Source of the DNA: a virus
Lineage: Duplodnaviria > Caudoviricetes
Reading direction: 5' to 3' (one strand)
Length of the DNA: 64,000 bases
IMG/VR virus record: IMGVR_UViG_3300021431_000075
Location: 64,001-128,000 of that record
This document shows, piece by piece, positions 1 through 31,788 of the stretch. A program made the position numbers and the translations under genes. The notes below the pieces were generated by a model, which was not told the origin of the DNA, made no database searches, and worked only from the letters and a program-made list of their open reading frames with translations. The stretch's first letter is position 1, and the number at the start of each line of letters is the position of its first letter.

Positions 1-680
1 TCATTTGTCAATATGTCTCCATTATTGTTTACCAGTCTCCAGCGAAATTGATCCCTAATTTTATACAACCCGTTCTCGGCATCAACGCAAAAGAATCTGC
101 CATACCTAATCGCGCTTGCAATATAACTCCGATATGCGGCATCATCATCTACAGATGGAAGAAAACTCTTATAGAAATTGACAATATTCGTCTTTTCTGC
201 AAATACATCATGTTTTGACGGATACTCAAAATACGCTTTCTCTCTCGTATTCGGAGAACCGCTAAACGTAATCACTATTCTACTGTTAGAATCTGTATCT
301 CTATTTGCATTATCACACCCGGAGTTCACTTCTATAACATCGCACATCGCGAACAGAAACGCATTGAAGTACCTCAACACTCCGAAAGATGCTGAAAACT
401 TAATATTCATAGTAAGCAACTTATCCGGACAATCAACAACAACCTCATCAAACGAGTCTATAACCCGTCTAACATCCTTCTGATATTCAAGAAATGCAGT
501 CATCTTACGTTTCATGTTATTAATAACATACATTCTTGGACCAATCTTATTAGAATTGATTCTACTTTTCACTTCCAAGTCATACTCCTGTCCTTGAGAG
601 TCATCAACAATATCTTCTACTTCATCAGCATCAACATCGCCAAGAAGATTCTCGTTCAAAATATATGGTCTCCAATTCAT
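1..680 (-). CDS. WG-repeat family paralog, N-terminal part (runs off window start)
   Basis: Not in the ORF track. Translated by hand from ATG at 680: MNWRPYILNENLLGDVDADEVEDIVDD..., open to position 3. Carries the family leader. Confidence 0.85.
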   Translation of the reverse strand, partial: MNWRPYILNENLLGDVDADEVEDIVDDSQGQEYDLEVKSRINSNKIGPRMYVINNMKRKMTAFLEYQKDVRRVIDSFDEVVVDCPDKLLTMNIKFSASFGVLRYFNAFLFAMCDVIEVNSGCDNANRDTDSNSRIVITFSGSPNTREKAYFEYPSKHDVFAEKTNIVNFYKSFLPSVDDDAAYRSYIASAIRYGRFFCVDAENGLYKIRDQFRWRLVNNNGDILTN

Positions 681-704
681 AAATCAATGCAAATAATCGA
701 ATTT

Positions 705-2465
705 TTAAATGAATGTCACAACTCTGCAATCCCTATCAACAAATCTATCATAACCGATTCTGAATAAACCGTCTTTATATATGGCAAGTCTCTCTCCAAT
801 CCAATCATTAAACAAAAATGTGCCATCTGCAAGAATGCAATTATAAGAGTCATCTTTCTTAACAATCGCGACACAATCCTCATAACATTCAACTGCTTGC
901 ACGCTGCTTATAAAAGAGATGTCATCAAAAGTTATTTCTGAAAGCTTCTTACCTTCCGAATCAATTATTATATACATGCCAAGGTTTTCACTATTGCTAA
1001 TGATGGCATATCCACGGTCGTTGAAATTCTGCGCATATGAACACCAATCTTTCAGCAACGGCTTGCCGTCCTTCTTGATGAAATTTACATTTCCTTCATA
1101 GTCAATGACCATCCCGAAACCGTTTGTAAACTTGCTGCATATCTCATAATCACCACTAACTTTCTCTCCTTTATCATTTATATAGTGCTGTGAAAAATGT
1201 CTTTTTACGATAGCCATTCCTTCTGAAAAATCATCATAGATATTATTTAACCTGTCCTTGCCGTTCTTCCATATCTTCTTGCCGTCATATCTAATGTAAT
1301 TCACATATCGTCTACCGTCCTTGCCGCTATATTCTATTTTTGCAAACCCGTCAGAAAAATTCCCACAGTCGCCATTTAAACTCTTATCAAATAAAAGATT
1401 TCCTTTTGTATCCAAATAGTTGTATTTCCTGCTTATAGTTCCATCGCTTTCAATATCATCTATTGCTACTCTTGAATAACCATCATAAAATCGTTCACAA
1501 CTAAAGAAACGCTTGCTTGTCAATTCTTTTCCATTATAATCAAGAACCGTCCATCCGTCTTCATCTTTTACAGAAGCAAACCCATTAATATAACTTTCAC
1601 AAGACAACCACCCACTTGAAATCAAATTTCCGCTTGTATCTATATGACCGTATAAATCATCATTCAATTTGACAACAGCACGCCCATTACAAAAGACATT
1701 TGCAGATTTGTACCATTCAGAAGATATATATTCACCATTCTTGTTCACATAATTAAAGGTTTCATCTCTTATAACAAGACACCATCCACAGCTAAAAAAT
1801 GTACAATTATCAACCCAATCATCAAGAACTATGATTCCGTCTCTTGTAACAAGATTCATCTTATTGCCAAATTTGACACGATACAAGTCTTCTCCGCAAC
1901 TATTCATCAAACCGATAACGATAAAACTCTTGACTATGCTTCTAAACACATAATACGGAGAGTTAGAACCACAAAACCCATTATAATGTTCATAATAATT
2001 CTTGTCAATCGTCAACAGTTCATTATTCTTCAAAAGATTGATATTCAACCAATCATCGATTAGAAACATATCGAAGTAATCAAAAAGAGATGCTATGATT
2101 TTAACAATCATCTGATTCAGCACATCAACTGTACAGTTTGCCTTGCTTCCGAACCTGATACAAAGACCGCTCTCATTGTCATTTTTGACATATTCCAGCT
2201 TCTTGTAGCACAATATCTTTCTTCTCTTGACATTTTCAACAAGAACATTCTCAACCAAATCATACAAACCATGATTACTATAGTAATACTCGGGTTCGCA
2301 TTTATAATTGTTTCCGTTTCTTGCATATATTGTAAACTCAAAATCACATTCAGCTTTCATATCGCTGAAATCATCATCAACTTCTTCAAGTTCAACACTA
2401 TCAAGAATATTTTCATACACAGCATCAAAAAATCCGTATCTATTCATCAAAGAAAACGAAAGCAT
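705..2465 (-). CDS. WG-repeat (WG_beta_rep/KWG-like) protein with conserved acidic leader
   Basis: 586 aa; leader VYENILDSVELEEVDD; repeats like FCNGRAVV...HIDTSGNLI and FSDGFAKI; C-terminus FVDRDCRVVTFI. Confidence 0.85.
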   Translation of the reverse strand: MLSFSLMNRYGFFDAVYENILDSVELEEVDDDFSDMKAECDFEFTIYARNGNNYKCEPEYYYSNHGLYDLVENVLVENVKRRKILCYKKLEYVKNDNESGLCIRFGSKANCTVDVLNQMIVKIIASLFDYFDMFLIDDWLNINLLKNNELLTIDKNYYEHYNGFCGSNSPYYVFRSIVKSFIVIGLMNSCGEDLYRVKFGNKMNLVTRDGIIVLDDWVDNCTFFSCGWCLVIRDETFNYVNKNGEYISSEWYKSANVFCNGRAVVKLNDDLYGHIDTSGNLISSGWLSCESYINGFASVKDEDGWTVLDYNGKELTSKRFFSCERFYDGYSRVAIDDIESDGTISRKYNYLDTKGNLLFDKSLNGDCGNFSDGFAKIEYSGKDGRRYVNYIRYDGKKIWKNGKDRLNNIYDDFSEGMAIVKRHFSQHYINDKGEKVSGDYEICSKFTNGFGMVIDYEGNVNFIKKDGKPLLKDWCSYAQNFNDRGYAIISNSENLGMYIIIDSEGKKLSEITFDDISFISSVQAVECYEDCVAIVKKDDSYNCILADGTFLFNDWIGERLAIYKDGLFRIGYDRFVDRDCRVVTFI

Positions 2466-2534: not shown

Positions 2535-4688
2535 TCAAACACAGGTAATCAGATTTCCGTCATAATCGCAACTAATGTTGCTATCTATATAAATCATACC
2601 ATCGTCACAAATAGTCGGAATATCATCAAACCACTCATTAGGAGAGAACAACAATCCGTTCGTATTCAATATGTTGTACCTGCGTTCTTTAACTCCGTTG
2701 ATTGACTCAAAATGGGCATAAACAACAACCGGCATTGAAGTCATCGACTGCAAAAACATAAACCATTTGTCATAAACAGGCTTTCCGTTGCGCCCCAATA
2801 TGTTACAAACCGGCTTTAGACTTGTATCTTGTGAAATCAGAATACAGTGTTCCTTCATTTCGAATTCAAACGGAACCCATTCATCAAACATCAACTTGCC
2901 ATCAGGACAAATACAGTTATTCTTGTTTTCAGTATCAGTAACAACTATGACCTTATAACCATTATCAAACGTATGCATATATGCATTTTTGAGCGGAATG
3001 TCAACTACCGGCTCTCCGTTTGGATAAATGACTTTATATGTTCTTACCACCCCGTCGTTTATATTGCTAACCCGGAACATTGTCTTGGAAAAACTCACAA
3101 CAGTGTCAAAATCATAATTATTTTCAAGAACTTGATTACCATTATCATCAACAAACGTGTTTGTTTTAGGTTCAATCATAACTTTCCATATACCCTCATC
3201 TTCTTGATAATCAAGAATATTCAAAAACTTCCATTCCTTGAACTTATACTCTCCTGTCCTGACATTCAAAGCATTCTTATATCCACCACGCTCAACAATA
3301 ACATACTCGAAATCATTGCTCTTGTGATTCAATGTCTTGACATAGTCAAAAACTTCATCAACTACATAAGAACCGTCAAAGCGAACCAAAGATGTTTTAT
3401 TGTCTTTCTCGAGTTTGTATATAAAGTACGGAGCATCATAACATTCTATTGATTTATACCAGTCATTAGAAAACAATTTACCTTTCTTGTCAATTAGATT
3501 ATATACAGTATCATTAAGTTTTTTAACGATTGCAAAATCTCCACAAAAATCTTGACAATAGCCAAACCACAAGTCTGGAGACAGAATCTTCCCGTCAGTA
3601 GATATGAAATTATACAACTGCGAATAATAATTTGCACCGTCCGATTTTCCAACAATCGCAAAGCCGTTCTTGAATGGCTTTATTGACTTGAACCCGTTAT
3701 TGTTGACCTTCCCGTTCCTGTCCATGAACGTATAATAGTCTTTTCTCTTAACTATAAACAAATCTTCATTCGAACCAGCAACGACATATTGGAACCATTC
3801 TTTCTTCGAAACAAGATTCCCTTCAGTATCCATAAAATTATATAGTCCGCGGTCATTATATACAATAGCATATCCATTCTTATCAAAACATCTGCATGAA
3901 TCAAACCAAACATCTGAAATCAGTTTTCCACTACAGTCAATAAAATTTTCTCCTTTATCTTTAAGTACAACTGTTGCAAAACCATTAGTAAAAAAATAAA
4001 TATAGTCATACCATTCAGAAATTCTCATTCCGGTCTCGTCGAATAACGCTTCTTTCTTTCCGACAGTCAACACGAAGATCATATGCTCTGTTTCAATGCA
4101 TTGAAGAAGTCCGAACCTGATTGCATACCTTACAAACAAGTAAGCAATCTTCTCATTATCAAGAGCCGGAAATAATTTCTTGAAAAACAATATCGACGAC
4201 AGCATAATCTGCTTTCCTACTTTATTGTTCGCAGAATCAAAATTTCTTGGCTTTGTAACATAACTTATAGTATATTTCTGTTCTCCGAAACGAATCTCCA
4301 CCGATTCGACATAACATGAAATATTTTTTATCAACGACATCGCTAACACGATAACAAAATCCGGAGAAAGGGGTTCAACTGTTTTAAATTGATACTGATA
4401 CACTTGCATTACCAGTGTTCCTTTCCCTTGAGTCCACCAAAACGAAGTTATCTTCTTCTTGGTTTGCAGATTATAAAAGACATTATAAGATGTGCGCTCA
4501 CACAACTTATGGAAATCCTGATCCGAACCGTTATATCTTTTTCCGAAATATGTGATTTTTACACCATACTCCTTTCCGGGTGAATCTTCATATGAATGCA
4601 CTGATGATTCATCATTATCTTCAACTTCATCTTGCTCTACATCGGAAAGAAGGTCCTCGTTCAACACATATATGTCATTTTTTATCAT
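2535..4688 (-). CDS. WG-repeat protein with conserved acidic leader
   Basis: 717 aa; leader YVLNEDLLSDVEQDEVED; repeats FTNGFATV...NFIDCSGKLI; C-terminus DYDGNLITCV. Confidence 0.85.
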   Translation of the reverse strand: MIKNDIYVLNEDLLSDVEQDEVEDNDESSVHSYEDSPGKEYGVKITYFGKRYNGSDQDFHKLCERTSYNVFYNLQTKKKITSFWWTQGKGTLVMQVYQYQFKTVEPLSPDFVIVLAMSLIKNISCYVESVEIRFGEQKYTISYVTKPRNFDSANNKVGKQIMLSSILFFKKLFPALDNEKIAYLFVRYAIRFGLLQCIETEHMIFVLTVGKKEALFDETGMRISEWYDYIYFFTNGFATVVLKDKGENFIDCSGKLISDVWFDSCRCFDKNGYAIVYNDRGLYNFMDTEGNLVSKKEWFQYVVAGSNEDLFIVKRKDYYTFMDRNGKVNNNGFKSIKPFKNGFAIVGKSDGANYYSQLYNFISTDGKILSPDLWFGYCQDFCGDFAIVKKLNDTVYNLIDKKGKLFSNDWYKSIECYDAPYFIYKLEKDNKTSLVRFDGSYVVDEVFDYVKTLNHKSNDFEYVIVERGGYKNALNVRTGEYKFKEWKFLNILDYQEDEGIWKVMIEPKTNTFVDDNGNQVLENNYDFDTVVSFSKTMFRVSNINDGVVRTYKVIYPNGEPVVDIPLKNAYMHTFDNGYKVIVVTDTENKNNCICPDGKLMFDEWVPFEFEMKEHCILISQDTSLKPVCNILGRNGKPVYDKWFMFLQSMTSMPVVVYAHFESINGVKERRYNILNTNGLLFSPNEWFDDIPTICDDGMIYIDSNISCDYDGNLITCV

Positions 4689-4705: not shown

Positions 4706-6631
4706 TTAAATATATGAGACAAGTTGCATCTTATTATCAACAAAAGTTTTCAAGCCAATCCTCAGCAAACCATTCTCATGTATATCTATCAACTCGTCAC
4801 TCCACTCATCAAGCAACAAGTTTCCTTCTTTATCTATCAAATTAAACTTCTTGTCTGTATTAAGTATAACGATGTAGCCATTTCTCTCATTATCTTCATT
4901 ATCGACAATATGAATATACATAATCCAGTCTCCTTCATCAAGACTATCATCAAGAAGGTATCTATGCTCCTTCACTGAATAATAATTTATCTTGTCATCT
5001 CTATTCTCATCTTCTATATGAACTACAACTACATAACCGAATACATATTCAATATCTATCAGATTGTCAAGAAGAACATTTCCTGACGTATCTATAATTT
5101 TCTTTAAACCGGCATCCTTGACAACAGCAAAACCGTATTCATTAAAATTTTTCACTATTGATTCAAACCACTTATTCTTTGAAACAAGTGAACGTTTCTT
5201 ACAATCAATAAAATTCCAACGTCCATCAATATTCTGTACAGCAGAAAAACCGTTTGATGGATGTTTGATTTCCAAGAACATATCTTTCATTATATGCTTT
5301 CCTTTTGTATCAATAATCGACATAAATCCAGTGTCTTTCAGTTTGACAACAGCAACTCCATCTATAAAATTGCTACAATCTGAAAACTCTTCATCTGTTA
5401 TATAGTTGCCTTTCTTATCAACAAAAGAAAAAACATCTTTAGACTTCTTAACCATGGCACAACCACATTGAAACCCAAAACATCTATAAAACATCTTGTT
5501 CATAATGATATTTCCAGTCTTGTCTATATATGTACTACATGCAGAACTGCTATTGTTTGATATTCTAACTGGAGCGTATCCTTCTGAAAAAACTCCAACA
5601 TCGTAATAATGAAATGTATCTATTGCAATGTTTCCATCCTTATCCAAGAAATCCCTTCCAAACTCCCCGTCGCTATTCTTATACTGAACTCTGATTAAGC
5701 CATCACTCAATTCTTCCGAAAACAGTAAAACATTAGAAAGAACCGTTTTCTTCTTTTTGATATCCATCAAAGTCCAGTACTCACGAGGCATTTCATATGC
5801 AACTATATCTGTTCCTTCAATAAAATCAAGATTCGTGATTTCTTGTTCTTTAAACATAAACTTTCCAGCTTCCAAGTCATATATATTGCATATGTTTTCA
5901 TCTCCCGACACACATCCATAAACTCCGATAAATCTTTTATTATAAACAAAGTCAATAAACCCCTTATCTCTCCAACATGGTATGCGTTTGGTTTCGTCGC
6001 AAACTACATTTCCTTTATCATCAACAATCAAGAAATAATCTTCATTATTGCAAATGAACGCATAATAACCGTCGGTGCCGTTCAAAAGTCTGTTTTGCAA
6101 TGCAAAAACCGTACAAATTCTAATTATTTCTTTCTCCGAATAATCCGGCTTAAACAAATCTACAAGATTTTTTATATAGAATTTAACATCCGGTTTTTCA
6201 TTATTGTCATTCAGAATGCCACATTGAAACAAACGTTGTTCATCTACATTTTCATATGATTCGTCAATATAACAAATCTTATAATCCAAATCATATTTGC
6301 TGCTAACGCAAATGATATTAATAAGGTACATCATGCATTGAACGAACAAATATGGAGAAAGAGAACCAATATAATTAAAAACAACATCTATAAAATCTCC
6401 GTCATCTCCATAATAATCGATTTCATAATCTATATGAACGCCATTTCCATAATCCGTATTCTTCATTTGTTCCAGCACGTCATCAATGACAGTATTCGGA
6501 GGTTCATTAAACATAATCCTCACAACAAGCCTATCATAATTATTCTCATCGTTATCAACAACATCATCCGTTTCAACTTTACCAAGAAGGTCCTCGTTCA
6601 ACATATATCTTTCTACGCTGCTCATAAACAT
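4706..6631 (-). CDS. WG-repeat protein with conserved acidic leader
   Basis: 641 aa; leader YMLNEDLLGKVETDDVVD; FSEGYAPV...YIDKTGNII repeats. Confidence 0.85.
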   Translation of the reverse strand: MFMSSVERYMLNEDLLGKVETDDVVDNDENNYDRLVVRIMFNEPPNTVIDDVLEQMKNTDYGNGVHIDYEIDYYGDDGDFIDVVFNYIGSLSPYLFVQCMMYLINIICVSSKYDLDYKICYIDESYENVDEQRLFQCGILNDNNEKPDVKFYIKNLVDLFKPDYSEKEIIRICTVFALQNRLLNGTDGYYAFICNNEDYFLIVDDKGNVVCDETKRIPCWRDKGFIDFVYNKRFIGVYGCVSGDENICNIYDLEAGKFMFKEQEITNLDFIEGTDIVAYEMPREYWTLMDIKKKKTVLSNVLLFSEELSDGLIRVQYKNSDGEFGRDFLDKDGNIAIDTFHYYDVGVFSEGYAPVRISNNSSSACSTYIDKTGNIIMNKMFYRCFGFQCGCAMVKKSKDVFSFVDKKGNYITDEEFSDCSNFIDGVAVVKLKDTGFMSIIDTKGKHIMKDMFLEIKHPSNGFSAVQNIDGRWNFIDCKKRSLVSKNKWFESIVKNFNEYGFAVVKDAGLKKIIDTSGNVLLDNLIDIEYVFGYVVVVHIEDENRDDKINYYSVKEHRYLLDDSLDEGDWIMYIHIVDNEDNERNGYIVILNTDKKFNLIDKEGNLLLDEWSDELIDIHENGLLRIGLKTFVDNKMQLVSYI

Positions 6632-6643: not shown

Positions 6644-8680
6644 TTAGACAAAACTCACATAGTTGTGTTCATAATCAATAACGGCAAAATTACCGATCTT
6701 CATCAATCCGGGTCCATACTTCTCAATAGGCTCGTCAATCCATTCGTCAAACATCTTATTGCCATCGCAATCAAAGACATTGGACTTCATCATATCATTC
6801 ACGACAATAACCAACTTATTCGGCTCCAGAACTCTGTAATATTGATATTTGAATGTCATCGGCTTGAACAATGCCTTTCCATATACCGTGTATATGTTCT
6901 GATACCCTGACTTTGCATACTTGACATCAAAGAAACCTTCATGTGGATTCCCAATCGAATCAAACCGCAAATCTGAACACAACCATTTCCCGTTATCCAT
7001 TATGATGCCATATTCATCATTTAATTTTACATAAGCAAGCTTATATTCGCTATTATAATTATCGTATTCCCATAGCGTATAATCCTTTATTACTGTCCCG
7101 TCTTTCCTTACCAGTTTTGATAATACCTTCCCGTCGTCCAGCCTCTTCTTTATGCAAAAAACATCTTCACTCAATGCAACAGGATGAGCAACATTAGACC
7201 ATTCTTCAAACAACAGTTTGCCTTCACTTGTCACATAATTATAAAAAGTCTTATTTTCTCTGTACCAACGGCTCACTTTGCACATATGCATATCATATGT
7301 ATATTCATATTCAGACGGCAGCGAGCAATTATAGAATCCTTCGTCAAACAACTTTTTGCCGCTTGATATTTCTATGAAGTTATAACATTCATCTAAATTA
7401 TCAAAACATGCATAACATCCGCATTGCGGATAACCTGTTGCACGCCAATGCCAATATTCAGAAACCAGCGTTCCGTCAGTTTTCAAAAAATTCTCTTTCG
7501 TATCAGATTTCTCAACCTTGGCAAACCCGTCAATAAACTTGTAGCATTTCTTCAACTTGTATTCTTTGCCGAGTTCCTTACCATCCCTGTCTATGTAGTA
7601 AAAGAATCTATTATCCTTGACTTTGGCATATTCACAGTTCTGATCGTCAGCAAGCTCAAAGAAATTATTTTTAAACAAAAGTGTTCCATTGGCATCAATA
7701 AGATTGTTGCAGTTATCGCTATCATCTATTCTAACAATCGCATAACCGTCTTTATTAAACTTATTAACTGATAGAAAACCTTCATCTGTAATATATTTTC
7801 CTCTTTCATCAATGATATATCTCTTTGAATCGTTCTTTTTTAGAACAATTCCAAAACCGTTTTCAAATGATGATATGTCTTTAAGATCCTCTTCAAAAAC
7901 ATCATTTCCATCAAGGTCGATAAGATTGCATTCCTCGTTAATCTTCTTAATAAGCGCCATATATCCAAACCTGTTGTACTTGCAACTCATAGAACTACGT
8001 TCAGTAGGATGCACAAACTTATCAAAGACAAAATTGGAATCTTTATCAAAAACGCACATTATCTGTTCAGTAATCAAATAAATGTAATAACGACTCTTGG
8101 CTTCATCCATCGGCACGATAATGCCATAACGGATGAACAACTTGACAATATCTCTCAAAACATCAGAAAACTCACCTTCAATACCAAAAATCTTTTTATA
8201 AGTTTCAAAACCATACATATAGACCGTTCTTTCCAACTCATAATGTACTGCAGAATTGAGCAATGAAAAAAAGAGTTTTGATTCCACATCACCTTCAATA
8301 CACACTCTCAAAACAGCATCTCCTTTAACCAGCGTGTTCTTATGGCATTTGACCATAACCGACAATGCGTTTGTAACTATCTTATCAAACACATCCTGTT
8401 TCGTTTCTGAAAAGTGAACTTCGATACGAAAACGAAATGTCATTTCACTATGATAAGAAAACGAATATTCATCAATGTCATGAGAATCAACAAGCGCGTC
8501 CATATAACTTCTGAACATAGAAGTCATATACTCATATGTACGGTGATCATTCCATCTTGAGTCGAAACTCAACTCAAACTGAACATTATTTACAGATTCT
8601 CCTGCTTCGTCTCTCACCTCGTCCGGTTTGACTTCATCAAGCAGAGACTCGTTTAACGCGTATAATCTTTTGACATTCAT
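6644..8680 (-). CDS. WG-repeat protein with conserved acidic leader
   Basis: 678 aa; leader YALNESLLDEVKPDEVRD; FENGFGIV and FIDGFAKV repeats. Confidence 0.85.
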   Translation of the reverse strand: MNVKRLYALNESLLDEVKPDEVRDEAGESVNNVQFELSFDSRWNDHRTYEYMTSMFRSYMDALVDSHDIDEYSFSYHSEMTFRFRIEVHFSETKQDVFDKIVTNALSVMVKCHKNTLVKGDAVLRVCIEGDVESKLFFSLLNSAVHYELERTVYMYGFETYKKIFGIEGEFSDVLRDIVKLFIRYGIIVPMDEAKSRYYIYLITEQIMCVFDKDSNFVFDKFVHPTERSSMSCKYNRFGYMALIKKINEECNLIDLDGNDVFEEDLKDISSFENGFGIVLKKNDSKRYIIDERGKYITDEGFLSVNKFNKDGYAIVRIDDSDNCNNLIDANGTLLFKNNFFELADDQNCEYAKVKDNRFFYYIDRDGKELGKEYKLKKCYKFIDGFAKVEKSDTKENFLKTDGTLVSEYWHWRATGYPQCGCYACFDNLDECYNFIEISSGKKLFDEGFYNCSLPSEYEYTYDMHMCKVSRWYRENKTFYNYVTSEGKLLFEEWSNVAHPVALSEDVFCIKKRLDDGKVLSKLVRKDGTVIKDYTLWEYDNYNSEYKLAYVKLNDEYGIIMDNGKWLCSDLRFDSIGNPHEGFFDVKYAKSGYQNIYTVYGKALFKPMTFKYQYYRVLEPNKLVIVVNDMMKSNVFDCDGNKMFDEWIDEPIEKYGPGLMKIGNFAVIDYEHNYVSFV

Positions 8681-10825: not shown

Positions 10826-10835
10826 TTTAATATAT

Positions 10836-10849
10836 TATAAGATATTTTA
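10836..10849 (-). promoter_or_regulatory. Variant copy of putative phage late-promoter motif (TAAAATATCTTATA)
   Basis: Shares the 12-nt core AAATATCTTATA with the exact ATAAATATCTTATA motif at 19605, 31775, 46829 and 56349. Lies just upstream of a WG gene. Confidence 0.5.
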
Positions 10850-10859
10850 GTACATACAT

Positions 10860-11070: not shown

Positions 11071-11075
11071 TATAT

Positions 11076-22009: not shown

Positions 22010-22024
22010 CAGTTTGTCAAATTC

Positions 22025-22630: not shown

Positions 22631-22814
22631 ATATGTTGTTCAGTTTTTCAACAATAGCATACGTAATCTGCATTGCAGTGTTGACATGCTCTTGGATTTC
22701 ATCAGGCTCCATTCTCTCAAGACCCTCAAGCAGCGGAAATTCGGTTCCGTCTTCGCATATGAAAATTCCATTAGCAACATCAACAGAAAGAACGCTTATT
22801 TTATTCTGATGCAT
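22587..22814 (-). CDS. Small hypothetical protein overlapping the tnpA start
   Basis: 75 aa ORF, preceded by GATAAATAAT, on the same strand as tnpA. Confidence 0.6.
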   Translation of the reverse strand: MHQNKISVLSVDVANGIFICEDGTEFPLLEGLERMEPDEIQEHVNTAMQITYAIVEKLNNIYGQATDIERDDATA

Positions 22815-22942
22815 AGAATTATCATCTTTTATTATTTATCATCATAAATATGAATGAATATTATTGATTGCTTATCAATATCTAATTTGACGCTGTTGAT
22901 AATCCATTTCGGAAGAACTTCCATCAAATGCAAATCTTGTTT

Positions 22943-25111
22943 TTAAATAATGGAAATAAGATTTCCCTTGTTATCAACATAGTTGTCAGCACCGACTCTA
23001 AATACTCCATCTTTGACATATTCAATCACACTGTCAGACCAGTCATCGAACAAAGTCGTCCCGTCAGGAAAAATAATGTTATATTTCTTCTTATAATATG
23101 CAACCTTGAAATAGTCGTCGTAACTATCTATATGAAGCTCGTCAGTTCTCAACCAGTTTTTAAACAAGAACTTACCATTGGAAGAATTCAGGAAATTGTT
23201 TATCATCATGCCATTGACTCTATTCTCAACAACATAAACATTTCCACAACAACCATTTATGTTCATAAACCAATCTTTTGAAACAAGCGTTCCATCAGAA
23301 CGCACAACGTTCCAGAGACCGGATGAGTTTTTTATTCTCGCACAATCATTCTCAAAATCACCAACAATGTATATATCATGCCAATAACCCTTGTCTTTCG
23401 TACTCAATATGTTTCCATTCTTGTCAACTATCTCTTTAAAGTTATTAATGATGACAACTGCACAACCGTTATAAAAATCCGACACAATGCTGTCAATCTG
23501 TATATCGAATAGCAAATTTCCATCACGACTGATAAAATTCGGACTCCCATCCCATCGATTTCGAATACGTGCAAAACCATCACAAAATTCAATAGGCGGG
23601 TTATCCTTATCAAAATATCTTACTTCAACATCCAACCCAAACCATTGATTTGTAATCAATTTTCCGGTAGTGTCAATAAAGTTATATTTCGACATGCCAT
23701 CTTTTGACACAACCAGCGCATTGCCGCCGGAATCAAAATTATAACATTCCCCAAAACCATCCGGTTTCCCGTTCTTGTCAACACACAATACATTTCCGCT
23801 TTCATCAACATAGTTCCATCCAGAAGAATAATACACCCTTGCATACCCGTTGCAAAAATCTCTACACCTACCAACCCATCTATCCAAAAGCAGTTTTCCA
23901 TCCTTTGTATAAAAGTTCCATGCGCCATTGTTGACAACTCTCCACACACCTTCGATTTCGGTTTGTTCAAAAGCATTATCAAAAACATCTTCTGGATACA
24001 AAATCCTGCATTTCTCGTCAACCAAAACAAATCCTTCCTTATCACCAGCGAATTCATCATCAGCATTGCAATAAACCCATCCGAAACCATTTCTGATAGA
24101 CTTGTATGACTTGATTCCTATATTTCCGAACATATCCTTTCCGTCTGCATCCAGAATATGAAAATAACCGCCTTTGTCCTTTACATAATAATATCCGCCC
24201 CGTCTAAAGTCAAGAACACCAAATCCATCTGACAAAATACGACCATGATTATCTATCAAGAATTGTTGATTCTCACTCTTTGGACGAACCACAGCTCTTT
24301 CATTCTCATCAAAAGATGTTCCATATGAATAATATTCTTCTGACAAAAGTTTTCCGCTTCTGTCTATATAATTAACTCCGCCACCATCTGAACTCAAACG
24401 CTGCACCTTCAGCATTCCAGACGAATATGTATTTATATCATTCAAATGAGAATTATCTCTTATAGAGAACAAATCATAACCTCTGGAATCAACAATATGC
24501 ATCATCTCACAATCATCATCCAATCTAACATATATCCTGTATATGTCATCCGAATCGCTTACCCTACATATCAAACCATATGCATTGCCAAGCCGAACAA
24601 CAGTTCTCATTACACTTATTCCCTCACATTCCGGAAACATCTCCTTAAGAGTTAATAAGTTTTTGAATCTCAAAGTCGCATGATTCTTTGTCGATACCCA
24701 GTCAACAGTCAGCCCCATATTTCCATAGTATTCAACATCATCACACTTATTGACAGACACTTCAAAATTATCCAACGAATTGCAATTTCCCTCACAGTAC
24801 AAACAGTACAACATAATCTTGACGACAAATTCTGCTGTAACACACTCTCTCCTGAACTTACAATCTATGATATATTTCCTGATACCACCGGTTGTATCTT
24901 TCTTGTATTCCATAGCAATGTTTCTTTCAATGAGATTATCAAAAAACGCATTGACTTGAACAATAAACCTATCAACAATAAGAGTTCTGTCACAAAACAC
25001 AAAACTTACAGAAATTGCTTCTTTGTTATCATTATCATCAGAAACTTCATCTGTTTCCAATTCTCCAAGAAGCGACTCGTTCATAATGTATGCTGTATTC
25101 ATATTGCTCAT
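22943..25111 (-). CDS. WG-repeat protein with conserved acidic leader
   Basis: 722 aa; leader YIMNESLLGELETDEVSD; FCNGYARV...WNYVDESGNVL; C-terminus VDNKGNLISII. Confidence 0.85.
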   Translation of the reverse strand: MSNMNTAYIMNESLLGELETDEVSDDNDNKEAISVSFVFCDRTLIVDRFIVQVNAFFDNLIERNIAMEYKKDTTGGIRKYIIDCKFRRECVTAEFVVKIMLYCLYCEGNCNSLDNFEVSVNKCDDVEYYGNMGLTVDWVSTKNHATLRFKNLLTLKEMFPECEGISVMRTVVRLGNAYGLICRVSDSDDIYRIYVRLDDDCEMMHIVDSRGYDLFSIRDNSHLNDINTYSSGMLKVQRLSSDGGGVNYIDRSGKLLSEEYYSYGTSFDENERAVVRPKSENQQFLIDNHGRILSDGFGVLDFRRGGYYYVKDKGGYFHILDADGKDMFGNIGIKSYKSIRNGFGWVYCNADDEFAGDKEGFVLVDEKCRILYPEDVFDNAFEQTEIEGVWRVVNNGAWNFYTKDGKLLLDRWVGRCRDFCNGYARVYYSSGWNYVDESGNVLCVDKNGKPDGFGECYNFDSGGNALVVSKDGMSKYNFIDTTGKLITNQWFGLDVEVRYFDKDNPPIEFCDGFARIRNRWDGSPNFISRDGNLLFDIQIDSIVSDFYNGCAVVIINNFKEIVDKNGNILSTKDKGYWHDIYIVGDFENDCARIKNSSGLWNVVRSDGTLVSKDWFMNINGCCGNVYVVENRVNGMMINNFLNSSNGKFLFKNWLRTDELHIDSYDDYFKVAYYKKKYNIIFPDGTTLFDDWSDSVIEYVKDGVFRVGADNYVDNKGNLISII

Positions 25112-25127
25112 TGTTTAAAAACCCATT

Positions 25128-27350
25128 TTAAATAAAACTCAACACATTTCCACGTCTGTCAATATAAACACGACCAGTATTGATTTGAAACACACCGTCA
25201 ATATTCGTATCATCTATCTCATCACTACTCATCTTGTCATATAGCAGCGTTCCGTCCGGCTTAATCATATTGTATAGATCATTTGACTTATTATAGATAA
25301 TGACGACATCATCATATGTATGAAAATCGTACTTGTAATCGTCAAGCCATTCATCGAACAATAGATCTCCTGAAGTATTCATAAAATTATACTCCATAGT
25401 TTTTGACTTTGACTGATGTCTACCAACCATACAGACGCTTCCACAAAACTCGTCAACTTCATAGTACCAGTCTTTCGAGACAAAACTTCCATCGGGTCTT
25501 ATGAAGTTAGAATGTCCTTTCTTGTTGACAACCAAAGCGTAACCGTTCTTGAACGGTTCTATCGAAGTTATCATACACTTCTTCTTGATTACAAGTTTAC
25601 CGTTCTTGTCAATAAGATTCTTGCTCCCGTTTCCATCTATAACAACCGCATAACCACTTTCATCAAAATCATAAACCTGCTCGAACCACACATCCGACAA
25701 GACGTTACCTTCAACATCTATATAATTGCCAAAAATCCCACCATCCTTATATTTATATACTCTAACAAATCCTGCACAAAACGGTGTTTTAGAATATACC
25801 ATCCCGTAACCATTAACATAAAAATTCTCTTTTAATATAGACTTTCCTTTCTTGTTGATAAAATCAACATATCTGTCCTCTCTATAAACCATTGCGATTC
25901 CGCATTCATGAAAATCACTACATGAATTAAACCAGACAGGCTTTCCGTTGCTTTGCTTGCAAATGAATTTTCCATTCGTATCAACATAAGTCATCTGGTA
26001 ACACTTGTTCTTATAATCATATTTAGTGACAATAGCACAACCGTTACAAAAAGAATCACAGTCTTCATACCAATCATTCAACAGCAATCGACCTGTCATA
26101 TCAACAAAGTTTGTCTTCTTTCCGCTTACGTTTTTATCATCAATCAATGAAACTATCCAGAAACCTTCTGAACCAGAATCGCTAATCCAATCATACATAT
26201 TGTTCTGAAACAGCAAATGTCCGTTCTTGTCTATGATGCCGTTTCCATTCTTGTCTTGCACTATTGCGCAACCAGAATCATCATCAAGAAAATCACCACA
26301 CTTGGTAAACAACTTATTCGACAACAATCTACCTCTTGCATCAATATAGTTATATTTCTCACCCATACGAACAACAGCATAACCGTTCACAAAATTCTTA
26401 ATCTCAGAAAATTTTCGGTTTGTTATCACTTTACCGCTTGTATCTATCAACGCATAATAATCACTTGTGCTGCCATCTGGTTCTTCACTTTCGATAATGT
26501 TAACTTCAGCAACGCCATAGCTGTCTATAAAATTGCCACAAAATCCACTATAGAAATCTTCTAATATGAAATTTCCGTCCGTATCTATATAATTGTAATT
26601 GAAATCCTTCCTGTTTCCAATTCCGACATCCTTATGGACTAACATCCTGCCGCAATGGTACACAGTATCGAAACATGCATATATATCATCATACTCAAAT
26701 ACAACATCCCCATTCTTTCTGGCTATCATGTACATAAGTTCATCACTTGTTGTTCTTGTAAAGATAAACTTATATAGTTCATTTCCAGTCTCTTTGTTCA
26801 CACAGAACAAAATACCCAACGGCAATGCAACTTTCATGATGCTTTGAATGATACTCTTCTTGCTACAATCCGGAAACAAGATATGGTAAGAATCTATATT
26901 TTTTATACAAAGATAACACTCTGATTTGCGTTCTGCGATGCAGAAAGTCAACCCATTCTGTTCTGTAAAATCAATATCACCAAAGGAACTGACTACAATC
27001 GAAAAATCAAACCTGACTTTTTTAAAACATGTGACATATAGAAGCTTTATAAGAAAGTTGTTAAAAGTGTCGATATTGACATCGGCATCATCAAACAATA
27101 TAGAAAAGTCAAGTCTTTCAGGATTTTTCTTATATTCAAAATTCTGGATAGAACCATACTTGACCTTCGTATTCAGATACTGTTTGATACTATCAACAGT
27201 ATTATACATGAAATAACTGCCTTGAATTGACAAATTGATAACAAACTTTCTATCATCATTATCATACACAACATCTTTCACATCATCCGCTTCCACTTTA
27301 TCAAGAAGCGTCTCGTTCAGAATATATGTTGAATGCATACAGTTCATCAT
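25128..27350 (-). CDS. WG-repeat protein with conserved acidic leader
   Basis: 740 aa; leader YILNETLLDKVEADDVKD; FVNGYAVV...YNYIDARGRLL. Confidence 0.85.
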   Translation of the reverse strand: MMNCMHSTYILNETLLDKVEADDVKDVVYDNDDRKFVINLSIQGSYFMYNTVDSIKQYLNTKVKYGSIQNFEYKKNPERLDFSILFDDADVNIDTFNNFLIKLLYVTCFKKVRFDFSIVVSSFGDIDFTEQNGLTFCIAERKSECYLCIKNIDSYHILFPDCSKKSIIQSIMKVALPLGILFCVNKETGNELYKFIFTRTTSDELMYMIARKNGDVVFEYDDIYACFDTVYHCGRMLVHKDVGIGNRKDFNYNYIDTDGNFILEDFYSGFCGNFIDSYGVAEVNIIESEEPDGSTSDYYALIDTSGKVITNRKFSEIKNFVNGYAVVRMGEKYNYIDARGRLLSNKLFTKCGDFLDDDSGCAIVQDKNGNGIIDKNGHLLFQNNMYDWISDSGSEGFWIVSLIDDKNVSGKKTNFVDMTGRLLLNDWYEDCDSFCNGCAIVTKYDYKNKCYQMTYVDTNGKFICKQSNGKPVWFNSCSDFHECGIAMVYREDRYVDFINKKGKSILKENFYVNGYGMVYSKTPFCAGFVRVYKYKDGGIFGNYIDVEGNVLSDVWFEQVYDFDESGYAVVIDGNGSKNLIDKNGKLVIKKKCMITSIEPFKNGYALVVNKKGHSNFIRPDGSFVSKDWYYEVDEFCGSVCMVGRHQSKSKTMEYNFMNTSGDLLFDEWLDDYKYDFHTYDDVVIIYNKSNDLYNMIKPDGTLLYDKMSSDEIDDTNIDGVFQINTGRVYIDRRGNVLSFI

Positions 27351-27363
27351 AATAGCGTCATTT

Positions 27364-29523
27364 TTAAATATAGTTCACAAGCGTCCCGGTCTTATCTACC
27401 ATAACACCATAACCTATTTCGAATAGGTCTTTATCCTTAATATAATTGATTTTATACGGTCTCCACGATTCACTCAACAACTTTCCGTCAGCAGTAATCA
27501 AATTATATCCATTACCTTTCTTTATGATATGGCAATCACCATATATCGTAATGTTGTTTGCATAATCGGACTCCAGCCATTCTTTCAGAATCAGATTTCC
27601 GTTCCTGTCGATAAAGTTAGTAATTTCATCTTTTTTGCGGTTCACTGCAAGAGTTACTTCACAAGCACCACCATAGAATCCACCGACTCTATAGAACCAA
27701 GTCTTGCTGATGCTCTTTCCGTCAATGCCTATATAGTTGAACTCTCCCTTGGCATTCTTCACACAAGCAAGACCATTAACAAACTTGCTTTCAATCTGAA
27801 CTTTCTTTCTGAATAAGATTTTACCAGAAGTGTCCACGCAACATGACTTTCCATCAATCTTGATAACGGCATAACCGCCACTAAAAACACATTCTATATC
27901 ATCACACCACTCATCCATCAAAAAAGTTCCATCTTTTCTGAAAAAATTATGCTTCATGGCATTCCCGTATTTTTTACAAACAGGAGCCAACCCGTCATTG
28001 AATGAAGAACTTCCGTCCAAGTTCACTCCCCAATAACGTTCAAAATGCACAGGAGATATGTATTTTCCGTTCGTGTCTATGAAATTCTCACAGTCGCCGC
28101 TAAAATCACTTATAATTACCTTTGCTATTCCATCTTCATCAAAGAAACTGCAGTTCTTGAACCAAACAGGACGACCATTTCTTTCACATACATAATTTCC
28201 GGCCTTGTCTATGAATGTCATCTCTCGTTGATTCTCAATTAATCCGTACCCATTTAAAAAACCACGGCACTTATCTACCCACTCGTCATTACCCGGCAGA
28301 TATGTTCCATCTTTTGTTATATAAGTCTCTTGTGTTGGAAGGCCTCCGTTGCTTTCATTTCTTCTCAGAATAAACACATCCTCGGACACACTGATGATTT
28401 TAACATCAGATTCTTCTGTATGAAACAATATATTTCCGCTTGTGTCTATAATACCTCTTCCATCATCATCAACAATAATTGCATAACCAGATTCAAAATG
28501 AATTGCCTTTGAAAACCATTTGTTCGGAGACAACACTTTTCCATATATGTCAATATAGTTATATTCTCCATCATAATTCTCAACGACAAAATAACCATCA
28601 TGGCTGAAACTATCAATATACTGATATCTATCTTCTGTGATGATTTCTCCTTTCGTGTTCATCAAACCCATAGATAGATCGTTAAATGTCACGACTGTAA
28701 CTTGCTCATAATATGAAAAATCTAAAGCACTACTAAAAAACTCATTAGATATGTAGTTTCCATTTATATCTATAAAGTTCCATCCCTTATTCTCTTGGGA
28801 ATATACTTTCAACAGACCGCAATTAAAAACATTGTTTGTCAATCCGCTTTCTCCCAATCTAACACGTTCTTTATATATTACTTTACCGTCTTTGTTAACA
28901 ACCAACCGTTCCCCCCATTTTACCAGATTTTTGTCTCTTTCATAATATACACAGAAACGATATACCTTATTTCGGGGTTCCAGACAATCACATAAACCGT
29001 ATTTGGACATAATGGTTCCGATACTAAAATAGACATCATTCATCGAAATATCCGGAAACAATTCTGCATATATGTTCAGATTCATCAACAAGACTCTGGT
29101 TGCATAGAATGAACATTCAACCGACAGAGCATCATCATTATATACTCTATCATCTATTTCTGTAACTCTCATTCTAAAAACCAATCCACAACTATCGAAT
29201 ACAACAGCAAGCGTCTTGAACATGATAGAGTTAAACAAATCAATATCAACCCTGTCGTTATATAGAAAGATAACTATGTCAATCCCCGCACCATTCCTAA
29301 ATCTTGAGTAATTTAGATTTATATTATAGCGCTCTATATATTTTCCTTCAACAAATGAATCAAATATATTATTTAGGACACTGAGAATTTCATCCTTCTT
29401 GGAATCGCCGACATTTAATGACAAAACAATCTTAAAACTGCCGTTCTTCTCATGAACTTCATCAACGTCAACTTCATCAAGAAGCGTCTCGTTCAACATG
29501 TATATCTTGTTTCTTTTCATCAT
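27364..29523 (-). CDS. WG-repeat protein with conserved acidic leader
   Basis: 719 aa; leader YMLNETLLDEVDVDEVHE; FNDGLAPV and FVNGLACV repeats. Confidence 0.85.
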   Translation of the reverse strand: MMKRNKIYMLNETLLDEVDVDEVHEKNGSFKIVLSLNVGDSKKDEILSVLNNIFDSFVEGKYIERYNINLNYSRFRNGAGIDIVIFLYNDRVDIDLFNSIMFKTLAVVFDSCGLVFRMRVTEIDDRVYNDDALSVECSFYATRVLLMNLNIYAELFPDISMNDVYFSIGTIMSKYGLCDCLEPRNKVYRFCVYYERDKNLVKWGERLVVNKDGKVIYKERVRLGESGLTNNVFNCGLLKVYSQENKGWNFIDINGNYISNEFFSSALDFSYYEQVTVVTFNDLSMGLMNTKGEIITEDRYQYIDSFSHDGYFVVENYDGEYNYIDIYGKVLSPNKWFSKAIHFESGYAIIVDDDGRGIIDTSGNILFHTEESDVKIISVSEDVFILRRNESNGGLPTQETYITKDGTYLPGNDEWVDKCRGFLNGYGLIENQREMTFIDKAGNYVCERNGRPVWFKNCSFFDEDGIAKVIISDFSGDCENFIDTNGKYISPVHFERYWGVNLDGSSSFNDGLAPVCKKYGNAMKHNFFRKDGTFLMDEWCDDIECVFSGGYAVIKIDGKSCCVDTSGKILFRKKVQIESKFVNGLACVKNAKGEFNYIGIDGKSISKTWFYRVGGFYGGACEVTLAVNRKKDEITNFIDRNGNLILKEWLESDYANNITIYGDCHIIKKGNGYNLITADGKLLSESWRPYKINYIKDKDLFEIGYGVMVDKTGTLVNYI

Positions 29524-29536
29524 TCATTACTTCATT

Positions 29537-31732
29537 TTAGACAAAAGACAAGAGATTTCCAGTCCCATCGACATAAAAAACATTGTCTATTCGATAAACA
29601 AAACTATCGCCGTTTTCAACAGGAACAATCTTTATTCCACTCCACTCTCCATAAAAAAGAAGCTTTCCTTTGGATGTAATCATATTCCACTGCGGAGCGT
29701 TCTCGCTATCACACAAGATAATACTATCCACATAAGTGTTTATATTGAATCTTCCACTATTGAACCATCTTTTCCCAAGTATGAACTTTCCGTTCGTGTT
29801 ACAAAAACTATATTCTTTTGATTTGCCATTTTCATTATATTTGGATACTTCAAATACACTGATATTCTCAAATCTGGTTATCGTTTCATACCACTCTTTC
29901 AAAACAAGCGTTCCGTCTGTCCTGATGCAATTCCATTTTCCATCATAACTTTGAACCCGCGCGATTCCGTCTATAAAAACGTCAATCTTTGAATATTTCG
30001 AATAGTCAGAATGAACCATGACACCATACTTGTCTATAATGCCAAGATGATTGTCAATCTTCACTACAGCATATCCATTTTTAAAATTCGTTTCAACTCC
30101 ATCAAACCAGAATTTTGACAGAATCCTCCCTGTTCTGTCAATAAAATTGAATTTTGTTATAAGATCATTTTTCTTATCCGTCACAATAGCAAAGTCTTCA
30201 GAGAACTGCGACACAGACAAATCAATACCAACTCGCTTGTCAAACCACTTTCTTGAAATCAGATTTCCTGACTTATCTATGAAATTCATCTTGTTATTTC
30301 TAAGCACTATCGCGTTTCCGCCTTCATCAAAGCAACCACAATCAGTAAACCATTCCGGCGTACCGTCATCTTTCTCACACAGCACATCTCCTTTCATATC
30401 AATGAAAGTATATCCGAATTTTGAATTGCAAATCCACATCAGACCGTTATGAAAACTGTTTCCATACCCATAAAACCAGTACTTTGATAAATACTTTCCC
30501 TTCGTATTTACCAGATTGTTGCAATTCCCATCACTATGATTCTTATCCCTCACAATCCATAATCCATTGCCTACTCTTGATATGGCGTTAAACTTCTCTG
30601 ACTGAAATAGAATCTTCCCTTTATTGTTACAAACACCTATTCCGTTACTGTTTGAAATAATTCCATACCCATCATCATCAAAATCTTCACAACTAAAATT
30701 GTTCCCAGTAAGCAACTCGTTGCCAGTTGCATCTATATAATTATAACCACCATCCTCATACTCAACTACAGCAAATCCGTTCGAATATTGATTTATAACC
30801 TTATAGTTATTATCAGCAATAAGATTTCCTTTTCCATCAACCAATCCAACACTATTATCTTCAAAGAGCCGGACGATAACTCCATTGGCTGTAAAACCCA
30901 CAATATCCTTAAAAGACTTGTTGACAAACTTTCCATCCCGGTTCATAAGATAGTATTCGTTCTTTTGGAAAGAATATACGGCAAGCAAACCGTTATGAAA
31001 CAAATCAAATTTGTCAGCGATCATCAAGGACTTCACCTGAAACTCATATATGATTTCTCCATTCTTTCTAAGAATCAATCTTCTAATATTAGCTTCATCA
31101 TAATATACGATATACTCACCATCATGCTCTCTTACAATATAAAGATGATATATGTCATATTCTCTGTCTATACACCTTGTCAATCCATATTTCGCAGATG
31201 CCTTGACAATACTTGAAAGATACTCCGTTTCCGATATGTTTGGAAACATATTCTTATACTCATTCGTATTGACAATCAGAATTGCTTCTTTTGAATTAGT
31301 ATTATCAATGTATAACTTTTTTACAAAAGTATCATCATCTATGAACTTTTCAACACTCAAGCCAAATGTGAAGTATTCTTTCATTATAGCAATGATACAG
31401 AACAAGACTTCATTAAACAACTGCACATCAAGATATGATTTGTCAATCCACAAATGAATATTCGCATTTATAAGGTCCAATTTCTCAATATCGTACTTAT
31501 GAACAATATCGCGCTTTTTTAAAAAATCAAAGTAACTTTTGATTCTTTCTTCGACTGCATATGGAAACGCCCGTCGTCCATCCATGTCAATACGCATCAT
31601 AATGTAAACACAATCATCCTCGTTGAAGTAATCGTCGCTATCTTCAACCTCATCAGAGTCAACCTTACTCAACAAGTTCTCATGGAGTGCATCATCAACT
31701 TCGTGCCAGTATGTTTCAATATCTTCATTCAT
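29537..31732 (-). CDS. WG-repeat protein with conserved acidic leader; first gene of the array
   Basis: 731 aa; leader ALHENLLSKVDSDEVEDS; FHNGLLAV and YSNGFAVV...YNYIDATGN. Confidence 0.85.
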   Translation of the reverse strand: MNEDIETYWHEVDDALHENLLSKVDSDEVEDSDDYFNEDDCVYIMMRIDMDGRRAFPYAVEERIKSYFDFLKKRDIVHKYDIEKLDLINANIHLWIDKSYLDVQLFNEVLFCIIAIMKEYFTFGLSVEKFIDDDTFVKKLYIDNTNSKEAILIVNTNEYKNMFPNISETEYLSSIVKASAKYGLTRCIDREYDIYHLYIVREHDGEYIVYYDEANIRRLILRKNGEIIYEFQVKSLMIADKFDLFHNGLLAVYSFQKNEYYLMNRDGKFVNKSFKDIVGFTANGVIVRLFEDNSVGLVDGKGNLIADNNYKVINQYSNGFAVVEYEDGGYNYIDATGNELLTGNNFSCEDFDDDGYGIISNSNGIGVCNNKGKILFQSEKFNAISRVGNGLWIVRDKNHSDGNCNNLVNTKGKYLSKYWFYGYGNSFHNGLMWICNSKFGYTFIDMKGDVLCEKDDGTPEWFTDCGCFDEGGNAIVLRNNKMNFIDKSGNLISRKWFDKRVGIDLSVSQFSEDFAIVTDKKNDLITKFNFIDRTGRILSKFWFDGVETNFKNGYAVVKIDNHLGIIDKYGVMVHSDYSKYSKIDVFIDGIARVQSYDGKWNCIRTDGTLVLKEWYETITRFENISVFEVSKYNENGKSKEYSFCNTNGKFILGKRWFNSGRFNINTYVDSIILCDSENAPQWNMITSKGKLLFYGEWSGIKIVPVENGDSFVYRIDNVFYVDGTGNLLSFV

Positions 31733-31774
31733 GTAGTCAAGCTATTCAAACTTTACACTTTTCCTTATATAATA

Positions 31775-31788
31775 TATAAGATATTTAT
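31775..31788 (-). promoter_or_regulatory. Putative phage late promoter motif ATAAATATCTTATA heading the WG array
   Basis: Exact 14-mer, just downstream of a terminator and ~40 nt upstream of the ATG at 31732. Confidence 0.7.

Follow-up and report, generated by a model that had tools for sequence, protein, structure and literature searches.

The window, a stretch of 64,000 nt, belongs to the 673 kb genome of an uncultured relative of the Lak gut megaphages, and it carries an array of long WG-repeat genes, all of them on the minus strand. A preliminary description had counted 13 co-oriented paralogues between positions 1 and 31788 and a 14th at 44.9 kb; both are confirmed, the 14th being a solitary gene at 44861–46795 with the strongest WG-repeat match of all (Pfam E 2e-26). 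The first paralogue is cut by the window edge, with positions 3–680 encoding the first 226 aa (leader and N-domain) of a 784-aa gene (genome 62326–64680), and the array, as had been suspected, is longer, running on for about 8 kb beyond the window to genome position 56573. It continues in the window with a 586-aa paralogue (705–2465) that has a variant leader, V-Y-E-N, and its own ATAAATA box upstream, then a block of four genes (2535–4688, 4706–6631, 6644–8680 and 8705–10825) with intergenic gaps of 12–24 nt, a block of three (13391–15436, 15429–17510 and 17507–19588) whose ends overlap, and a further block of four (22943–25111, 25128–27350, 27364–29523 and 29537–31732) with gaps of 13–16 nt. 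Two broken copies had also been reported, but a family profile run over all stop-to-stop frames found only one, at 19677–20297 on the same strand, of which the last 206 aa are left (family-profile positions 480–689). Across the whole genome, 52 genes carry the N-terminal leader, referred to here as the tag; they occupy 94 kb, or 14% of the genome, and most encode WG-repeat proteins.

Two IS607-type elements, both on the minus strand, lie within the array. The first (10825–13269) contains a serine recombinase (12571–13203) and a 479-aa ORF (11076–12515) without a Pfam match that, by its position alone, is taken for a putative TnpB; this insertion is missing from three other populations (X4, X6 and X7; joints 10823/4 to 13269/71). 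The second (20352–22918; TnpB at 20357–22009, serine recombinase at 22025–22630) stands in place of 1385 nt from the 5′ part of the broken paralogue, an intact 690-aa form of which is present in another population (L032). Whole family genes have likewise been gained or lost between populations, and this turnover, seen among populations from sheep, goat and cattle, is suggestive of a role in an arms race. A hypervariable domain was not seen between close orthologues, which are 90% identical in the leader and 86% in both the N-domain and the repeats.

The family proteins are about 500–780 aa long, beta-rich and strongly acidic (mean net charge −20), with a cysteine content of 2.4% versus 1.8% in other proteins. 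Each begins with a disordered acidic leader, followed by a ferredoxin-like N-domain (about 190 aa), the WG beta repeats and a last strand common to the family. This agrees with the earlier account of a variable domain of about 200 aa, WG-type repeats and a shared C-terminus. Among 20 paralogues the N-domain is 17% identical, the repeats 25% and the last 25 aa 33%. PF14903 (WG_beta_rep) scored above its gathering threshold of 25.6 bits in five of eight scanned copies (best 92.2), the other three, which are diverged, falling below it or having no match. No signal peptide is suggested, as had been noted, the top 19-aa hydropathy near any N-terminus being 1.35. AlphaFold2 left the leader segment with the hydrophobic-x-Glu (PHI-x-E) site disordered. 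A fold search with the N-domain returned generic ferredoxin-like matches alone (Z ≤8.0, about 90 residues aligned) and one with the repeat part returned loose matches alone, to large propellers (Z about 9, rmsd >10 Å); neither indicated a function, and PDB sequence searches with one paralogue and with the capsid protein gave no matches. The repeat units resemble those of bacterial WG-repeat proteins (PF14903, E down to 2e-26), and of the bacterial proteins that a family profile search collects, thousands match solely by the repeat. A full-text literature search on WG-repeat function yielded nothing useful.

The leader had been described as far better conserved than the rest, and its 16-residue core indeed has a mean pairwise identity of 61% among the 20 paralogues, against 39% for the best 16-aa window elsewhere. 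All 14 window copies have PHI-x-E-[SNTD] followed by L-L-[DGS]-x-[VI]-[ED]-x-D-E-V-x-D. Synonymous codons within the leader differ widely, which rules out gene conversion as the source of this conservation and, together with the amino acid identity, indicates that the leader is maintained by selection. Across the 52 genes the tag lies within residues 2–44, and in about ten of them it precedes unrelated bodies, for which neither the N-domain profile nor Pfam gives a match. Related contigs from ruminant-gut metagenomes have it too, arranged in tandem arrays, and it is confined to relatives of the 673-kb phage. When 185,579 prokaryote genomes were scanned with a strict DNA pattern, it matched at three places, as many as chance would predict; each lay within a high-GC frame and none coincided with the start of a protein. 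A word-based homologue search, with the first 260 aa as query, recovered one near-identical protein only. Common occurrence of the leader on non-phage chromosomal WG proteins had been named as evidence against the packaging idea, and the repeat-only bacterial proteins among the best 150 profile hits have neither the leader nor, by profile coordinates, the ferredoxin-like N-domain.

Gene blocks had been said to be headed by a promoter-like motif, and in the window AAATATCTTATA is present in six copies where 0.04 would be expected. Of the six, five lie on the minus strand before genes, four of these before family blocks: a variant, TAAAATATCTTATAAT, at 10836–10847 heads the block from 8705–10825 onward, and copies at 19605–19616, 31775–31786 and 46829–46840 precede the block starting at 19588, that starting at 31732, and the 14th paralogue, respectively. 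Genome-wide, ATAAATATCTTATA is present 33 times (36 with a shortened form), and all but three copies lie 20–110 nt upstream of a gene in the correct orientation. The same motif heads the genes for the tail sheath (PHROG E 6e-87), head-tail adaptor and head closure, which places the family in the virion, or late, promoter class; the ATAAATA core is also found upstream of the portal and protease genes. The T4-type late promoter, TATAAATA, is read by gp55, and two sigma-70 region-2 matches in the genome are candidates for a gp55-like factor: one at 633.6 kb, and a weak one, within a frame of 130 aa, at 458.8 kb. The promoter class supports the proposal of late expression for most family copies, which use the virion-gene promoter; host-type TAnnTTTG boxes precede the copies at genome positions 18948, 24072 and 25690. 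Sheep and cattle gut samples contain the phage, but no RNA runs holding window positions 22900–32000 were listed.

A gp21-like prohead protease, a gene whose search had been proposed as a check, is encoded at genome 624491–626329. Its Peptidase_S77 domain scores 31.6 bits with PF03420 (cut-off 27) and matches T4 gp21 by BLASTP (E 2e-8), with G-E-L-D-H-P aligned to T4 G-E-L-N-H-P around the catalytic His and V-S-S-R to V-S-S-R around the Ser. Both a protein search with T4 gp21 and a Pfam scan of the ORF found the gene; PF03420 searched against the six-frame translation of the genome had no match up to E 10, a false negative, and a regular expression written for the gp21 Ser motif overlooked the gene as well, catching instead an 865-aa protein that is not a protease. 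The protease domain is fused to a scaffold-like tail spanning aa 190–612, and the fusion protein contains four [LIVM]NES sites, the highest count in the genome (0.08–0.17 expected; P 2e-6 to 3e-5). Of 20 diverse orthologues, 15 have LNES immediately after the protease domain, 3 have LTES there, 1 INES and 1 ITES. In the proteome, 31 of 57 [LIVM]NES occurrences fall within the first 50 aa, where 15% of residues lie. In the capsid protein (called form, 655 aa), a KLNE at residue 57 is invariant in Lak-type relatives and is the final [LI]-x-E ahead of the conserved fold. Judged from these sequences, cutting after (L/I/M)-x-E is likely, and since the tag carries this likely site of the head protease, the tagged proteins are probably loaded into the phage head. 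The T4 gp21-type protease works inside the prohead core (PMC9958956), so that a conserved cleavage site favours an internal location over the alternative first offered for this array, namely that the proteins decorate the virion exterior or act there as adhesins, with the leader anchoring them to capsid or tail. Such a role would suit the family's diversified binding surface, its late expression and its variation in copy number, as well as the abundance of WG repeats in bacterial proteins without the leader; on a virion surface, however, the early-promoter copies would be pointless, and we regard this reading as very improbable.

The position of the conserved residues complicates a simple cleavage tag. 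Of 51 copies, 45 retain the Glu together with a hydrophobic residue at the second position ahead of it, and the segment preceding the predicted cut is variable and only 0–20 aa long (10–13 aa in most window copies). Conservation is highest in L-L-D-x-V-E-x-D-E-V-x-D, which falls on the C-terminal (P′) side and would therefore remain on the mature protein. Paralogues at genome positions 18948, 20652 and 24072 have no PHI-x-E site and yet retain the acidic motif, whose role must thus be separate from cleavage. The idea of a packaging and cleavage tag accordingly survives in part: it is supported by the gp21-type protease and the enrichment of [LIVM]NES, but a conserved tag that lies mostly after the cut and persists without the site is not a removable capsid-targeting sequence of the T4 kind. 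Nor did a genome-wide scan with the full leader profile match any capsid, portal or scaffold protein, a match that had been named as support for the idea. It is conceivable, if unlikely, that the acidic motif instead docks the proteins onto one shared partner that lies outside the head (for example a host or phage hub protein), the PHI-x-E residues being part of a binding helix with no cleavage site and the proteins being cytoplasmic modular adaptors. Conservation peaks at L-L-D, V-x-D and D-E-V rather than before the Glu; most copies that keep the motif without PHI-x-E stand behind host-type promoter boxes; the tag is disordered alone, resembling a short linear binding motif; and the proteins are acidic and Cys-rich, all of which would fit. 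Such docking leaves unexplained the retention of the Glu with its hydrophobic partner and the recurrence of LNES in the protease-scaffold protein, in the capsid propeptide and at the end of a second leader type described below, and it sits poorly with the virion-gene promoter on most copies. A complex prediction of the tag (aa 1–45) with a papain-type peptidase encoded beside the portal scored 0.00 and gave no verdict.

On the analysis as a whole, the family would be expressed late and supply internal head (cargo) proteins to a Lak-type megaphage, a reading to which we give about even weight. Its steps of cleavage, packaging and ejection, and the binding targets, are ones that we infer. The virion-gene promoter would drive transcription of each block, and the disordered N-terminal tag would take the protein into the assembling prohead, its receptor there likely being the protease-scaffold core protein. 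The gp21-type head protease would then cut after the Glu of (L/I/M/V)-x-E, mostly in LNES, leaving the acidic stretch S-L-L-D-x-V-E-x-D-E-V-x-D at the new N-terminus, and the ferredoxin-like domain and the diversified WG body would function as modules for binding, most likely once the protein has been ejected into the host as infection begins. A more speculative reading, which we consider quite unlikely, is that the acidic half-tag has no addressing role and is a shared effector handle retained on the mature protein and also on early-made copies without a cleavage site, each WG propeller binding a different host protein (e.g., one of defence) and the handle coupling that target to one machine (a protease, a chaperone or the scaffold-derived core). 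If true, this would be a prokaryotic-virus counterpart of the poxvirus ankyrin/F-box adaptor families, delivered by injection and early synthesis.

T4 internal proteins are small and basic. That the present proteins are large, beta-rich and acidic counts against head cargo, and they would have to unfold to pass through a tail. In T4 and phiKZ-type phages, head proteins are loaded by means of short N-terminal propeptides, and a protease of the gp21 family cuts after Glu (PMC9958956, PMC5694885, PMC10052503); in T4, IPI-III and Alt carry a capsid targeting sequence that is cut by gp21 (Mullaney and Black 1996, reviewed in PMC9958956, PMC5694885). The array resembles this system in its short N-terminal tag on otherwise unrelated proteins, in a hydrophobic-x-Glu near the N-terminus with a gp21-family protease in the genome, in the 10–13 aa before the predicted cut in most window copies (T4 propeptides have 10–20 residues), and in expression with virion genes, here judged by the promoter motif. 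It differs in that the tag has no sequence similarity to that of T4, its conserved part being acidic and mostly after the cut; the T4 targeting sequence lies wholly before the cut, whereas here the motif opens the conserved tag. T4 has four cargo proteins, in contrast to some 50 acidic repeat proteins of 500–780 aa here.

A further comparison is with the ejection-protein paralogue families of phiKZ-type giant phages, as in SPN3US (gp53/gp54, family B), which has many head-internal proteins, paralogue families among them (PMC10052503, PMC5694885), and whose propeptides, also N-terminal, are cut off behind the Glu of a three-residue motif, as is predicted here. The SPN3US protease gp245 cleaves its own C-terminal part, matching the conserved LNES behind the protease domain of the present phage. 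The motif there is A-x-E or S/A/G-x-E, unlike (L/I/M/V)-N-E-S, and the propeptides are mostly 111–254 aa, unlike the short segment here; as far as can be compared by description, SPN3US has no WG-repeat body, shared acidic motif or protease-scaffold fusion. Heads of the phiKZ type contain tens of MDa of internal protein, including paralogue families (PMC10052503), a precedent for supposing that the family is a structural filler or inner body that organises or spaces the 673-kb DNA, as the phiKZ inner body does, with no effectors among its members. Protease processing and late expression would fit this equally well, as would the very large part of the coding capacity that the family takes. A filler would have no need of about 50 copies diverged to 17–25% identity or of gain and loss of whole genes between populations, and early-promoter copies without a cleavage site would make little sense, so that we hold it to be improbable.

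We know of no virion data for Lak-type gut megaphages. Should the proteins be packaged as cargo, they would form by far the largest and most diversified head-cargo set known, with about 50 genes in 14% of a 673-kb genome, and the tag could become a sequence marker for candidate injected proteins in uncultured megaphage genomes. The protease-scaffold fusion, the predicted LNES cleavage motif and the presence of two tag types together offer a testable model of head assembly in these phages. Four genes with the second of these leaders, L-Y-E-S-I-M-[KR]-D-V-A-K ... R-L-N-E, adjoin the portal gene. Like the acidic tag, this leader is N-terminal and precedes unrelated bodies; it ends in the same L-N-E, often followed by Ser. 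It is a basic tag, and all of it (residues 1–25) precedes the predicted cut, whereas the acidic tag lies mostly after it.

The virus record, of which the window covers bases 64001-128000, is 673,114 bp long with direct terminal repeats. Its It has 40.6% GC, is consistent with the standard genetic code, and encodes five tRNAs, none of them a suppressor. Its capsid protein belongs to the T4 Gp23 type and shares 63-66% identity with capsid proteins of Lak megaphages, the portal is T4-like (Pfam E 4e-67), and DNA of the window stretch is contained in gut metagenomes of sheep, cattle, and goat. The WG-repeat family genes all lie on the minus strand. As the preliminary description had reported, thirteen co-oriented paralogues occupy window 1-31788, the first (3-680, minus strand) being the N-terminal 226 residues of a 784-residue gene cut by the window edge, and a fourteenth lies at 44861-46795 (minus strand); the array, which was thought possibly to extend further, does so for about 8 kb past the window edge, up to genome 56573. 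Two broken copies had been claimed, but scanning all open frames with a family profile turned up just one (19677-20297, minus strand), consisting of the last 206 residues only. An IS607-type element (2.6 kb, window 20352-22918) stands in place of its first 1385 nt, while a contig of another population (L032) holds an intact 690-residue gene equivalent to it. This element, which destroyed a paralogue, encodes a TnpB that Pfam recognises. Contigs of three other runs lack another IS607-type element, at about 10825-13269, whose 479-residue ORF has no Pfam match; both elements lie within the array, with a serine recombinase in each.

AlphaFold2 modelling from an alignment of 21 family members (mean pLDDT 82) gave a disordered segment at residues 1-27, an alpha/beta domain at residues 28-225, and an all-beta remainder that matches Pfam WG_beta_rep (PF14903). 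The first half of the N-terminal domain is a ferredoxin-like beta-alpha-beta-beta-alpha-beta unit; modelled alone, the domain reached a pLDDT of 86 and a pTM of 0.80, and its fold searches returned generic matches only (Z at most 8.0). The repeat part bore no more than a loose likeness to large propellers, and in all intact copies the last strand ends precisely at the C-terminus. The proteins are large, and their mean net charge of -20 makes them strongly acidic.

The leader is indeed much better conserved than the rest of the protein. Across 20 paralogues, mean identity is 61% over the leader 16-mer, compared with 17% in the N-domain, 25% in the repeats, and 33% at the C-terminus, and the best other 16-residue window does not exceed 39%. 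At its conserved Ser, Leu, Val, Asp, and Glu positions the codons differ freely among copies, a pattern that selection on the leader peptide accounts for and recent gene conversion does not. The strongest positions are the final Asp (50/51) and the Val two places before it (49/51), followed by the second Leu and the Glu of the hydrophobic-x-Glu (PHI-x-E) site, each in 45 of 51. A leader profile places this tag, at N-termini only, on 52 called genes, which together take up 94 kb (14% of the genome). A second profile, built from the N-domain alone, matches 44 of the 52; the bodies of about ten match neither that profile nor Pfam, so the tag is portable between protein bodies. Leader and N-domain were combined into one profile and compared with 1.84 billion representative proteins; of the 150 best matches, about 85 share all three of leader, N-domain, and last strand with the family, and bacterial WG proteins among these 150 match via the repeat only, without the leader. 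A strict DNA pattern for the tag found one further IMG/VR contig, with a non-WG body, and twelve metagenome contigs, on which tags about 2 kb apart and the same promoter box are often seen. In 185,579 prokaryote genomes it hit three places, at chance level and none at a protein start.

Promoter sequences connect the family to virion genes. The window has six copies of the sequence AAATATCTTATA, where 0.04 would be expected, and the 14-mer ATAAATATCTTATA occurs 33 times in the genome, all but three copies lying 20-110 nt upstream of a correctly oriented gene. Behind ATAAATATCTTATA are found the tail sheath (PHROG E 6e-87), a head-closure-like protein, a head-tail adaptor, and 14 family genes, and the family thus belongs to the virion-gene promoter class; the ATAAATA core is also present upstream of the portal and protease genes. 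By association with this class, we infer that the family is expressed late. As for a gp55-like sigma gene, there is a gene for a sigma-70 region-2 protein at genome 633.6 kb; a further match, at 458.8 kb, is weak and confined to region 2. TAnnTTTG boxes of the Bacteroidota host type, upstream of the copies at genome 18948, 24072, and 25690 (in stretch L003), suggest that the host is one of the Bacteroidota and that these copies are expressed early. One promoter-like motif copy lies antisense within the paralogue at 13391-15436 (window 13997-14008, plus strand) and may be a chance occurrence or an antisense promoter.

The evidence that shifts the odds most is the protease together with its probable site. 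Two six-frame searches of the genome with Peptidase_S77 (PF03420) found nothing; the gene was later located with T4 gp21, taken from the T4 record, which matched genome 625898-626200. The 612-residue ORF (genome 624491-626329, minus strand; L047:97-1932) scores 31.6 bits with Peptidase_S77, over the cut-off, matches Peptidase_S80 too, and aligns with gp21 at the His and Ser motifs (BLASTP E 2e-8). Behind the protease domain follows a charged, low-complexity tail of about 440 residues that looks scaffold-like, a fusion of the same length class in 120 of 120 Lak-type relatives among the matches listed. This protein has the genome's highest count of [LIVM]NES, four against 0.08-0.17 expected (P 2e-6 to 3e-5). 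Immediately after the protease domain, 20 diverse orthologues (45-50% identity) have a site that is LNES in 15 of them, LTES in three, and INES and ITES in one each, and other PHI-x-E-S sites are also conserved in position. Across the proteome, 31 of 57 [LIVM]NES fall within the first 50 residues, a region with 15% of all residues. In the capsid protein, KLNE stands at residue 57 of the called 655-residue form; it is invariant in relatives and is the last [LI]-x-E ahead of the segment that aligns with T4 gp23, from which 65 residues are removed in T4 (PMC9958956). A second tag type, ending in R-L-N-E at residue 25, is carried by at least 14 proteins, four of them beside the portal. Proteases of this family cleave after Glu in a three-residue motif, and some cut their own C-terminal part (PMC5694885). 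Taken together, these observations point to (L/I/M/V)-N-E, preferably followed by Ser, as the likely cleavage motif. PHI-x-E-[SNTD] is present in each of the 14 window copies, inside the disordered segment. The four portal-side genes are small (genome 660035-662354, in stretch L015), their leader, of this second type, is basic, and one body is zinc metalloprotease-like by weak Pfam matches. Directly after the portal gene, behind the long late motif, lies a papain-family cysteine peptidase (genome 658475-659134; L015:4475-5134, plus strand) with the motifs H-A-V-x-x-V-G-Y and N-S-W-G.

The leader is nevertheless not a plain removable targeting sequence. The stretch ahead of the predicted cut is 0-20 residues long and variable, except that Tyr is frequent five places before the cut; the conserved acidic run lies C-terminal to the cut and would stay on the mature protein. 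Paralogues at genome 18948, 20652, and 24072 keep this run without PHI-x-E, the first and last of them behind the TAnnTTTG boxes, and the large size and strong acidity of the proteins also sit poorly with a simple T4-style tag. The acidic run therefore probably has a role of its own; it could form the P' side of an extended recognition element that docks cargo on the protease-scaffold protein, or be a handle used by the mature protein. Of the proposed late, protease-tagged family, then, the late-class promoter, gp21-type protease, and probable cleavage site hold up, but the simple removable tag does not, and packaging in the head and injection are what we infer from these features. Head cargo that carries an N-terminal tag and is processed by a protease is already known in T4 and in the phiKZ group; what is new here is the tag itself, the fold of the putative cargo, its scale, and the fusion of protease and scaffold-like tail.

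Close orthologues (mean identity 86%) differ evenly over leader, N-domain, and repeats. In contigs from other runs, of sheep and goat, 15406 is joined to 22919, 15407 to 19599, and 19660 to 22940, some of these joints being provisional because their flanks are short; the first two would mean that whole paralogues are absent there, a hint that recombination between gene boundaries changes copy number. Such gain and loss of whole genes is more in keeping with a family whose selection pressures change than with a fixed structural part. Elsewhere in the window, three adjacent large genes (868, 443, and 457 residues; window 37142-42370) form another paralogue set with repeated units containing W-x-I-x-D-A-x-P-G-D-[IV]-L, and three small tandem paralogues (141-168 residues; window 58647-60017) have near-identical sequence ahead of each start codon.
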